From the NCBI GenBank assembly GCA_029717555.1, contig JAMDHS010000002.1, positions 186,001 through 250,000 on the forward strand: DNA of 64,000 bases, given 5' to 3'. The notes beneath the pieces are model-generated. The model did no database searches. It saw only the letters and a list, made by a program, of their open reading frames with translations, and was not told where the DNA came from. Source of the stretch: Peribolospora baueri (Eukaryota). Position numbers and translations under genes: made by a program. Of this stretch, positions 30,259 through 32,330 are shown piece after piece (within the stretch, counting starts at the first letter, position 1; each line of letters begins with the position of its first letter).

Positions 30259-32330
30259 TCAAGAAGCCCCGTCTACCGACTTCTTCCGCTTCTTCTTTTT
30301 TCCGCCCTGTTCTTCCTCGCCTCTTCGGCTCACTTCTTCTCCGTCCGCACCGTCCTCCTTCTTCCGCTTCTTCTTCTCTTTCTTGTCTTTCTCCTTCCCC
30401 TTGGCCCTGTCTTGCTCCTTCTTCTCCTTCTCCTTCTCCTTCTCCTTCTCCTTCGCCAAAGCCTTCTCGTCCGGAGCAACGAACGCCTTCTCTCTCTCTG
30501 CCTTGCGCGAAGCTGTAGCGGCCGCCTGCTCCTTCTTCCGTCGCTCCTCCTCTCGCGCTTTCTTCTGCGACTTCTTGAGGAAATACTCGCCCGATTCCAG
30601 TTGCAAATCCACCTGCCAATCCGGCCCGGAGAAAGAGATGACGGTGAAAGGACGGCGGGAATGTTAGTTCCTCGGAGCCGAGCATGGTTTCGATCGATGG
30701 AACGAGGATCGCCCGCAATGTCGGAACTGTCCCGTAAGCGACACTCACCTTGCTCGGTTGCTGAGGCGGCGGGAAAGGCGTGTACACCTTCTTCTTCTTC
30801 TTGGCTTCCTTCTCCACGCTGGCTGCCCCTTCCGCCGTTGCCGCGGCGGGCTGACCGGCAGCACCGGTTGGAGCGGCGTTGGCTCCTGTCGCGGACGCCG
30901 CTCCTTCCGCCAGCTTCTTCTTTTTCTTGACGTTCTGCTTCTTAAACTTTGGTAGGAAGCGCTCCCAGTTCTCGTTGGCCAGCTTCGGGTCTTTTGCAAG
31001 TTCTCGCTTAATCATCAGTTCCTGACGACGAAAAAGCCCAACGAATGAAAAGATCAGTCCACCATCGAACAGAATCACTCTGAGCCATAGCGTATCCTGC
31101 GACCCTACAAACTCACCTTTATGTGATAGATGGGGTGGATGTTCTGCATACAGTCGATCACAATCCGTCGCACCTCCTTGAGACTCTTGAACGACCCCAT
31201 AGCGGCGACAGTGTTGCCTTGCACCATGACGTAGCATTGTGTCAGCAGCTCAATAGCCTGGTAGGAAGTAAAAGAAATCGTGTCGCATTAGCACATCTGT
31301 TACAATACTCCCGCAGGACCGGCGTAAAGGCGAAGGCGAGTCATGCAGCATCACACCTTTAATGTGCTGCCCTTGGGACCGATAATCCGTTGTCGTCGCT
31401 TGACAAAGCGCTCCTTATTCCTGACCAAGTTTCCAATCTTTATGATATCGCACGCAACACCGTCGTCCAAAACCTTCACGGCCTTTTAAGGGAAGGTCAA
31501 ACGATCGGCATCGTCAGATAAGATATTGCACGGCAAGCCGACAAGCGGAAAGGCGCACCTGAGGAAACGGTACGCTACGACTGAGAAGCTTGATAAGATC
31601 TCGGGCCTTGAGGATGATATACGGGTCGAACGTCTTTCTCGTCGTCTTGACCGTCATTGATCCTTCCACCAAGTCAAGAGTACACGCCACGCCCTACAAA
31701 TCGCATCGAAATGAAAGGAATTCAAGGGTAAGAACGGGAAACTCTCTCTTATACCCTGACAAGCAATGCATTTGCTCATCATGTCGACTCACACGTTTGT
31801 CCAAAGCGCTCGTGACATGACTCCACACCTCTCGGAGATACTGTTCTCGATACTTGGGGAAGAGGGTGGCGAAGGAGGACTCCTCGGTGAAAGGGAGCGG
31901 GTTATCTTCCCGGGTGAACGGCTTGACCTCCCACTAAATCAAGCAAGAGATCGAAATGCAGATAATGAGGATGAGGACGATCGTCTCCGTATGCAGTGAG
32001 CCGGTTAAGGGCTACGTATACTCACGCTAGACAGACCAGGCGGTAAATCCGAGATGTTTCAGGAGCGGAGCAGAGATATTCAACACTTTATCCTGTTAAA
32101 CTCCAATATCAGCACACAGGAAGTAAACTACTCACTGGTCAATGTCGTCAGTGTCCCAAGCTGAAGGATGAGCGCAGGATGAGGTCAGCGAGCGTACCAG
32201 CGCCGAAAACCCTCGAAATCAAACAACATATGGCCAGATGCTCACGTTTGTCCTTCCTGTGACGCTTGTTCTTGCTCACCACTGGCTGCTCCGGCTCGTC
32301 CATTGCGGGTGCCTTTTCGGTGTCTGCCAT
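30259..32330 (-). CDS. KRR1: Krr1 KH-domain SSU processome component
   Basis: [97 protein letters not shown]. Confidence 0.96.

Follow-up and report, generated by a model that had tools for sequence, protein, structure and literature searches.

The KRR1 gene on the minus strand of a 64,000-nucleotide stretch of Peribolospora baueri DNA (assembly GCA_029717555.1, contig JAMDHS010000002.1, positions 186,001 to 250,000; this whole stretch is referred to here as the window) raises the question of how two exons that do not fit together can encode one continuous protein. The second exon, which encodes (P)WDTDDID, ends with CA after two bases of a codon (phase 2), whereas the large exon that follows begins with the complete Trp codon TGG (phase 0), and exactly one additional base resolves the clash. 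That base is very probably the C at position 32026, located between an acceptor and a donor in the context CTAG/C/GTGAGT (slashes mark splice junctions), which would make it an exon of a single nucleotide (nt) completing a His codon. Krr1 is essential in yeast, and without the C the KRR1 reading frame of the window shifts and reaches a stop at codon 97.

The gene model in which the C is embedded was fixed by tblastn against three named Krr1 proteins and consists of nine exons, including the single base, that sum to 1281 nt and encode 426 codons plus the stop codon with no internal stop. The identity of the gene, whose product Krr1 (Mis3) is a KH-domain factor of the small-subunit processome, is well established, as exon 4 alone matches 645 Krr1-type proteins (E up to 0.001; Pfam PF17903, PF21800 and PF22891 on the matches) and the full model aligns end to end with Krr1 of Violaceomyces, Tilletiaria and Coprinopsis. 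All eight introns of the model are GT-AG introns with G at +3 of the donor, and their lengths in order of transcription are 85, 109, 92, 99, 76, 99, 95 and 136 nt. The position of the first of these introns is read through in several database fragments, which carry '...AWDTDD' at this point.

The two introns that flank the single base, termed here intron A (upstream) and intron B (downstream), resemble the other introns of the gene. Their lengths of 109 and 92 nt fall within the 76-136 nt range of the other six, while an undivided intron of 202 nt would be by far the longest in KRR1. The 3' end of exon 2 reads GAC ATT GAC CA and is followed by a GT donor at 32135-32134 (GTGAGTAG; GTGAGT), and the sequence after the C provides a second GTGAGT donor (GTGAGTAT), the same hexamer as in three of the six other introns. 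The extended motif AG-N-GTGAGT occurs four times on both strands of the window (128 kilobases in total, the site of the C included), which corresponds to about 0.006 per 200 nt. A branch candidate, CTCAT, is found 32 or 38 nt from the 3' end of intron B. Other canonical pairs of donor and acceptor fail, as the upstream acceptors run into the in-frame TAG, the downstream AGs are in phase 0 and the next donor (GTAGTT) brings in an in-frame TGA. A preliminary description of this DNA had interpreted the C as a one-nucleotide exon, and the coordinates, lengths and phases that it gave for exon 2, the C and exon 4, as well as the in-frame TAG that it placed just before TGG GAG GTC, proved right on direct and scripted reading. 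Its interpretation is likewise supported here, in that the one-nucleotide exon appears to be the sole reading that has GT-AG introns throughout, retains the conserved Trp and yields an intact 426-codon KRR1.

The same architecture is observed in orthologous genes. Metagenome contigs were scanned with an alignment of the exon 4 region, which gave 492 relatives, from which 80 loci were kept and 55 could be examined at the junction; left out at this step were 25 of the 44 loci lacking a motif match, mostly marine types with 'WDVPKF/WEVPKF/WSVTPF'. In 31 of the 55 loci there is no junction intron, and a His, Lys or Arg codon, never Gln, directly precedes TGG. A further 11 carry a single phase-0 intron of 42-82 nt after the His codon (CAY/GTA...AG/TGG), two are too short to classify (L015 and L026), and the remaining 11, which represent nine distinct sequences from soil metagenomes, display the double-intron architecture of the window. 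Thus, the occurrence of AG-N-GT in the KRR1 genes of relatives, which the preliminary description had proposed to look for, is borne out by YAG/Y/GT at the same codon position in nine distinct loci. In each of them, one exon ends with CA/GT, the next starts at AG/TGG and a YAG/N/GT lies near the middle of the gap, where it separates sub-introns of 43-58 nt, the same size as the other introns of these loci (about 46-61 nt, as judged from the breaks between tblastn segments). Moreover, each half of the gap carries a CTRAY-like motif of its own. At N, the nine loci carry T, C, C, T, T, T, T, C and C, and the window carries C; since this base is a pyrimidine in 10 of 10 cases, the residue encoded would be His in all ten sequences. 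Apart from this shared junction pattern, introns A and B cannot be aligned between loci, and the nine loci show five bases that appear to be maintained inside otherwise freely diverging introns.

Krr1 proteins in public collections point to the same residue. A set of 206 proteins was assembled from the exon 4 search (the best 120 of the 645 matches) and a second search. Among the matches listed, the closest Krr1 protein is at most 83% identical to exon 4 of the window, and because the identity never exceeds this value, the collection would contain no proteins of this organism or its close kin. Between D-I-D and W, 87 of the 206 proteins have His, 23 Gln and six Lys; 12 have one to four extra residues, 16 read through non-homologous sequence, one lacks a residue and 61 have no recognizable motif. 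The motif PWDTDDID(H/K)W given in the preliminary description is therefore reflected in the homologues by the 87 proteins with His and the six with Lys. Krr1 of Coprinopsis cinerea (P0175) reads DIDHW. In addition, 12 proteins resemble products of complementary DNA (cDNA), namely full-length open reading frames (ORFs) chosen by eye on contigs barely longer than the coding sequence (CDS); as these contigs are of about CDS size, the ORFs would have to derive from intron-less templates, that is, transcripts. His is present in 11 of these 12 and Lys in one, while Gln is found in none.

The principal alternative for the window is a single non-canonical intron of 201 nt (TG...AG or, equivalently, GT...TA), with the G at 32135 or 31934 remaining in the messenger RNA (mRNA) to give Asp-Gln-Trp. 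Such an intron also restores the frame, tblastn aligns the window as ...DIDQ, and the 23 database models with Gln appear to lend it precedent. All 23, however, are genome-derived gene models from Agaricomycotina (22 from Agaricomycetes and one from Mrakia), and they stand against the absence of Gln from both the 12 cDNA-like sequences and the 31 loci without a junction intron. Closely related species moreover conflict at this very position. One of the cDNA-like proteins of the His/Lys set (P0177) is 98.2% identical to the model of Suillus luteus, which has Gln, 97.9% to that of S. brevipes, which has 'HT', and 96.6% to that of S. weaverae, which has His. Suillus models thus show H, Q, HT or read-through at the junction residue. 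The two varieties of Agaricus bisporus are modelled differently from each other, as are several species of Suillus, Lentinula and Pholiota. Because very close relatives disagree at exactly the junction residue, this appears to be a problem of annotation rather than of protein evolution, and the inconsistent Krr1 models of Agaricomycotina probably reflect systematic mis-annotation of a one-base exon. TG-AG and GT-TA introns are in any case extremely rare. A single intron would furthermore have about twice the normal size in every lineage, and a Gln junction leaves the conserved mid-gap YAG/Y/GT (10 of 10 sequences) unexplained. We therefore consider the single non-canonical intron very unlikely.

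Less likely still is that the one-nucleotide exon exists but is a different base, the T at 32085 (AAAG/T/GTTGAA). The AG-Y-GT motif is present there, the frame is restored and the residue is again His (CAT), yet the introns would be 50 and 151 nt long, the first well below and the second above the 76-136 nt range of the gene, and GTTGAA makes a poor donor, its +3 base being T where all eight introns of the model have G. About 18% of shuffled versions of the interval contain a bare AG-Y-GT by chance, and in the orthologues the base lies near the middle of the gap and is followed by a good donor.

Frameshift-like junctions commonly signal indel errors, but it is very unlikely here that an exon edge carries a 1-nt assembly error or that KRR1 has decayed into a pseudogene, as two Logan assemblies of one organism (organism A) are identical to the window at this site, the interval is free of indels in a close relative (organism B), the rest of KRR1 is an intact and highly conserved ORF, and nine distinct orthologous loci share the architecture. 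The runs compared were four DNA contig sets from one study, so that the check rests on contigs rather than raw reads. Contigs of the two organism A runs cover the window from 30466 or 30582 to 32700 with no differing letters and no gaps. In organism B, which is about 98% similar, all 14 gap letters stem from indels at three places (31532, 31761 and 32385), none of which falls within 31934..32160; for this reason organism B would share the phase clash and the lengths of both introns. Among these contigs there is no sign of an assembly error at the junction.

Two related arrangements were also considered and set aside. The site is not a spliceosomal twin intron (stwintron), as no internal intron interrupts a donor, branch site or acceptor; the signals of introns A and B are intact and unnested, with one exon base between them. 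Neither is it a zero-nucleotide recursive splice site, as one base separates the AG from the GT and is needed for the frame.

Several observations weigh against the one-nucleotide exon at 32026 and should be read together. In the anatomy of the site the weakest point is intron A, in which no perfect match to the branch motif CTRAY stands at the usual distance from the 3' end; its candidates are only near-consensus (CTGAA, TTTAC and TTAAC at 32, 17 and 69 nt, respectively). Among 2000 dinucleotide shuffles of the 202-nt interval, 364 contain an AG-Y-GT that leaves both parts at least 35 nt long; for eight orthologous loci (L079, which is truncated, was omitted) the corresponding figures are 68-213 per 2000, and the bare motif is thus weak evidence alone. 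The window itself contains the second, poorer AG-Y-GT described above, which would give His too. Moreover, the nine loci share ancestry and are not nine independent events, so that multiplying their shuffle frequencies would overstate the significance. That the 12 proteins are cDNA-like is deduced solely from contigs of about CDS size, and a pair of genomic DNA and cDNA from the same species was not found for any one-nucleotide-exon locus; the best match is between locus L036 and a genome model of Amanita rubescens, with 96% identity over 158 residues. With respect to sequence accuracy, the organism A runs may be the source of the assembly itself and would then not be independent, while the comparison with organism B within 31934..32160 rests on indels, substitutions having been compared only up to 31571.

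If the C at 32026 is an exon, it would be a constitutive one, situated between two U2-type GT-AG introns, each with its own donor, branch region and acceptor, and excision of both would yield an mRNA encoding Asp-His-Trp (GAC, CA+C, TGG). Intron definition is the rule for short fungal introns, and under it introns A and B would have to be excised in succession, since the polypyrimidine and AG signals of intron A overlap the U1 site of intron B (-3 to +6) and the two could not be engaged simultaneously. Either order would lead to the same product and leave the remaining intron intact: removal of intron A first would create the donor context CAC/GTGAGT, and removal of intron B first the acceptor context CTAG/C-TGG. 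The splicing of both introns and the order of their removal are what we infer from genomic sequence. Joining donor A to acceptor B would skip the C and cause a frameshift with a stop at codon 97, retention of intron A would lead to an immediate stop, and retention of intron B to a stop after six more codons. We suggest that the arrangement has been inherited and kept by selection, rather than being a local accident.

The distribution of the arrangement was placed on a FastTree (LG) phylogeny of 81 sequences and 230 columns anchored to the window protein. All nine double-intron loci fall inside the Agaricomycetes (support 0.95), where they range from a Serendipita-like branch to Piloderma-, Suillus-, Leucocoprinus- and Amanita-like branches; exon 4 of L036 is 100% identical to an Amanita rubescens protein. 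The window groups with Ustilaginomycotina (Tilletiaria, Violaceomyces, Sporisorium and Moesziomyces; 0.83) as sister to the rest, with moderate support, and is without the one-residue insertion ('DNKAGPF') that is common to the Agaricomycete loci. Thus, the one-base exon would be present in two basidiomycete subphyla, with the placement of the window moderately supported. Locus L003, which is Tilletiaria-like, is poor in introns throughout and has none at the junction. A single early origin followed by later loss in intron-poor smuts is a simpler reading than convergent gain. The eight phase-0-intron loci on the tree form a clade of their own (0.98) that is weakly attached to Taphrinomycotina (Neolecta and Saitoella; 0.44), and they may represent an abundant soil ascomycete lineage without a named Krr1 in the collection. 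As the phase-0 position of intron B is that of the sole intron in this other fungal clade, intron B is probably older than intron A. Between D-I-D and W, the Krr1 model of Mycena chlorophos (P0052) contains exactly 18 codons of read-through sequence ('QCV...HS'); this pattern, known from the protein model alone, fits a single phase-2 intron followed by Y-TGG, that is, the loss of intron B. A recent tandem duplication or an introner insertion as the source of the second intron is supported neither by similarity between introns A and B, which resemble each other no better than shuffled sequences do (local score 14, attained by 290 of 500 shuffles, whose mean is 14.3), nor by further copies of either intron in the window, where only chance matches of 12-17 nt were found; an old event would leave no trace.

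A tentative scenario, which we regard as possible but rather doubtful as a whole, is that the one-base exon of KRR1 is ancient, having arisen once, before Ustilaginomycotina and Agaricomycotina diverged, when an old phase-0 intron was joined by a second intron one base upstream, that it has been held by selection and that it represents a natural intermediate of a one-nucleotide intron shift. If so, a gene that lost intron A would keep the phase-0 intron, one that lost intron B would keep the phase-2 intron, a state suggested by the model of Mycena chlorophos, and one that lost both would have no intron, as in the intron-poor smuts. Should the reading of the Mycena chlorophos model be right, one gene would hold all the states for a one-nucleotide intron shift, by a route that differs from the stwintron pathway described by Fekete et al. 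(2017, PMC5587772). A bolder corollary of the same doubtful scenario is that the exon acts as a splicing-dependent brake on a ribosome-biogenesis factor, in which case the brake would consist of an obligatory two-step splicing together with the frameshifting skip product.

One-nucleotide exons are already known, and what is new here is the host gene KRR1 and the extension beyond Agaricomycetes. The preliminary description had called such exons very rarely reported; their rarity is fairly stated, but they are already established in both plants and fungi. A single-nucleotide exon of Arabidopsis APC11 was proven with reporter constructs and cDNA (Guo & Liu 2015, PMC4674806), and 1-nt microexons of APC11 and VPS55 are reported as conserved across land plants and always absent from annotation (Yu et al. 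2022, PMC8831610). As in KRR1, a base flanked by AG and GT lies between two canonical introns in these plant genes, is required for the frame, is unannotated and is conserved in a large clade, and where both introns have been lost, as in some lineages, the base is now internal to a larger exon. For APC11, too, removal of the introns in sequence under intron definition was proposed (Guo & Liu, PMC4674806), as is suggested here for KRR1. The plant cases belong to another kingdom and to other genes, and they were verified by reverse transcription PCR, reporter constructs and RNA sequencing, whereas KRR1 is known from genomic sequence. In addition, the base of APC11 is described as freely changeable, whereas in KRR1 the His codon permits only a pyrimidine.

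Among fungi, a one-nucleotide exon of Fusarium CYP621A is supported by SRA reads (Nelson & Syed 2026, PMC12940212). Like KRR1, CYP621A is a fungal nuclear gene with AG-N-GT in an interval of about twice the usual intron size; the exon was recognized by phase incompatibility and an intron-less relative, and nearly all gene models are described as wrong at the site. In contrast to KRR1, the gene is a rarely expressed P450 of an ascomycete genus, in which the base is the middle one of a Gly codon within the motif AGGGT, whereas KRR1 is a core ribosome-biogenesis gene in which the exon would span at least two basidiomycete subphyla. A long-read annotation of Coprinopsis cinerea lists 13 exons of 1 nt in 13 genes (PMC12230235) and, like the KRR1 case, points to such exons as recurrent in Agaricomycete genes, there with long-read support; the names of the 13 genes are given neither in the text nor in three supplementary tables of that source. 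In the limited literature collection searched, no paper on a one-nucleotide exon or microexon of KRR1 was found.

Zero-nucleotide recursive splice sites, or ratchet points, of Drosophila are cited in PMC4674806. Ratchet points leave zero nucleotides in the mRNA and subdivide very long introns, whereas KRR1 would keep one coding base and both of its introns are short. The two systems nevertheless have in common that an acceptor lies beside a donor (YAG next to GTRAGT) and that removal of the upstream part places a 5' splice site directly after the ligated exon, where it is used in a second step. The [D1,2] and [A2,3] stwintrons associated with a 1-nt intron shift (Fekete et al. 2017, PMC5587772) likewise resemble KRR1, as the intron positions of orthologues lie one nucleotide apart (phase 2 and phase 0), splicing proceeds in two steps and canonical introns at discordant positions would result if one of the two were lost from the DNA. 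They differ in that an internal intron interrupts the splice signal of an external one with no exon base between them, while the introns of KRR1 appear complete and independent, with one base retained.

The features of the KRR1 locus are collected in Table 1.

Table 1. Exons and introns of KRR1, numbered by position in the window, and orthologous loci with an intron at the junction
Feature	Position	Strand	Length (nt)	Description
KRR1 exon 1	32246..32330	-	85	ATG at 32330; ends phase 1 within Pro codon; donor GTGAGC at 32245; tblastn match to Violaceomyces and Tilletiaria Krr1 N-termini
KRR1 intron 1	32161..32245	-	85	GT-AG; CTGAC branch motif 24 nt from 3' end
KRR1 exon 2	32136..32160	-	25	(P)WDTDDID plus CA of His codon; ends phase 2
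KRR1 intron A	32027..32135	-	109	GTGAGT...CTAG; phase 2, inside His codon (predicted)
KRR1 one-nucleotide exon (probable)	32026..32026	-	1	C, third base of His codon (CA+C); context CTAG/C/GTGAGT
KRR1 intron B	31934..32025	-	92	Starts GTGAGT, ends TTTAG; phase 0, between His and Trp (predicted)
KRR1 exon 4	31793..31933	-	141	Starts TGG GAG GTC; translation ...ALDKR; preceded in frame by TAG (31936-31934)
Remaining KRR1 introns	31792-31694, 31558-31483, 31356-31258, 31116-31022, 30748-30613	-	99, 76, 99, 95, 136	
Remaining KRR1 exons	31693-31559, 31482-31357, 31257-31117, 31021-30749, 30612-30259	-		Span 30259..31792; last exon includes stop codon
Phase-0-intron-only loci				Soil metagenomes: L001, L004-L008, L010-L012, L055, L064
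Double-intron loci				L016, L017=L019, L030, L034, L036=L028, L044, L051, L072, L079

The C-terminal exon of KRR1 contains a Lys/Glu-rich repeat (30351-30465) at which the Logan contigs of all four runs break off or are skipped, and this repeat is a weak point of short-read assembly inside a coding exon. About 80 nt upstream of the KRR1 start codon lies a stretch of 290 nt (32411-32700) that is bounded by inverted repeats of 23 nt (32411-32433 and 32678-32700; 96% complementary), the 17-mer core of which occurs at only these two places in the window. The left arm (32402-32433) is also present on a second contig in runs X1, X2 and X4, while organism B is without 41 nt inside the stretch (32606-32646). 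No transfer RNA was found near 32411-32700, which looks like the remnant of a small transposon of the miniature inverted-repeat transposable element (MITE) type in a shared promoter region. The divergent neighbor of KRR1, on the plus strand at 32780-33800, has exons that encode a nucleotidyl-transferase-like N-terminus (...PLQAVILADSFNSRFKPLTVDKPR...) and presumably specifies a protein resembling the gamma or epsilon subunit of eIF2B.

For the annotation of fungal genomes, the KRR1 junction would mean that a gene finder unable to place a 1-nt exon mis-models or breaks an essential gene across a whole phylum, and the site may serve as a compact benchmark. With respect to the mechanism of splicing, two complete introns separated by the smallest possible exon would constitute a conserved natural substrate on which the order of removal can be measured and for which exon definition is excluded by the size of the exon itself. 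Finally, the absence of an intron, the phase-0 intron, the two introns and perhaps also a phase-2 intron all occur among fungal orthologues of KRR1, and because all of these states are found, the gene offers a concrete test of one-nucleotide intron spacing, with the window extending the one-base exon, if correctly identified, from mushroom-forming fungi to a lineage near the smuts.

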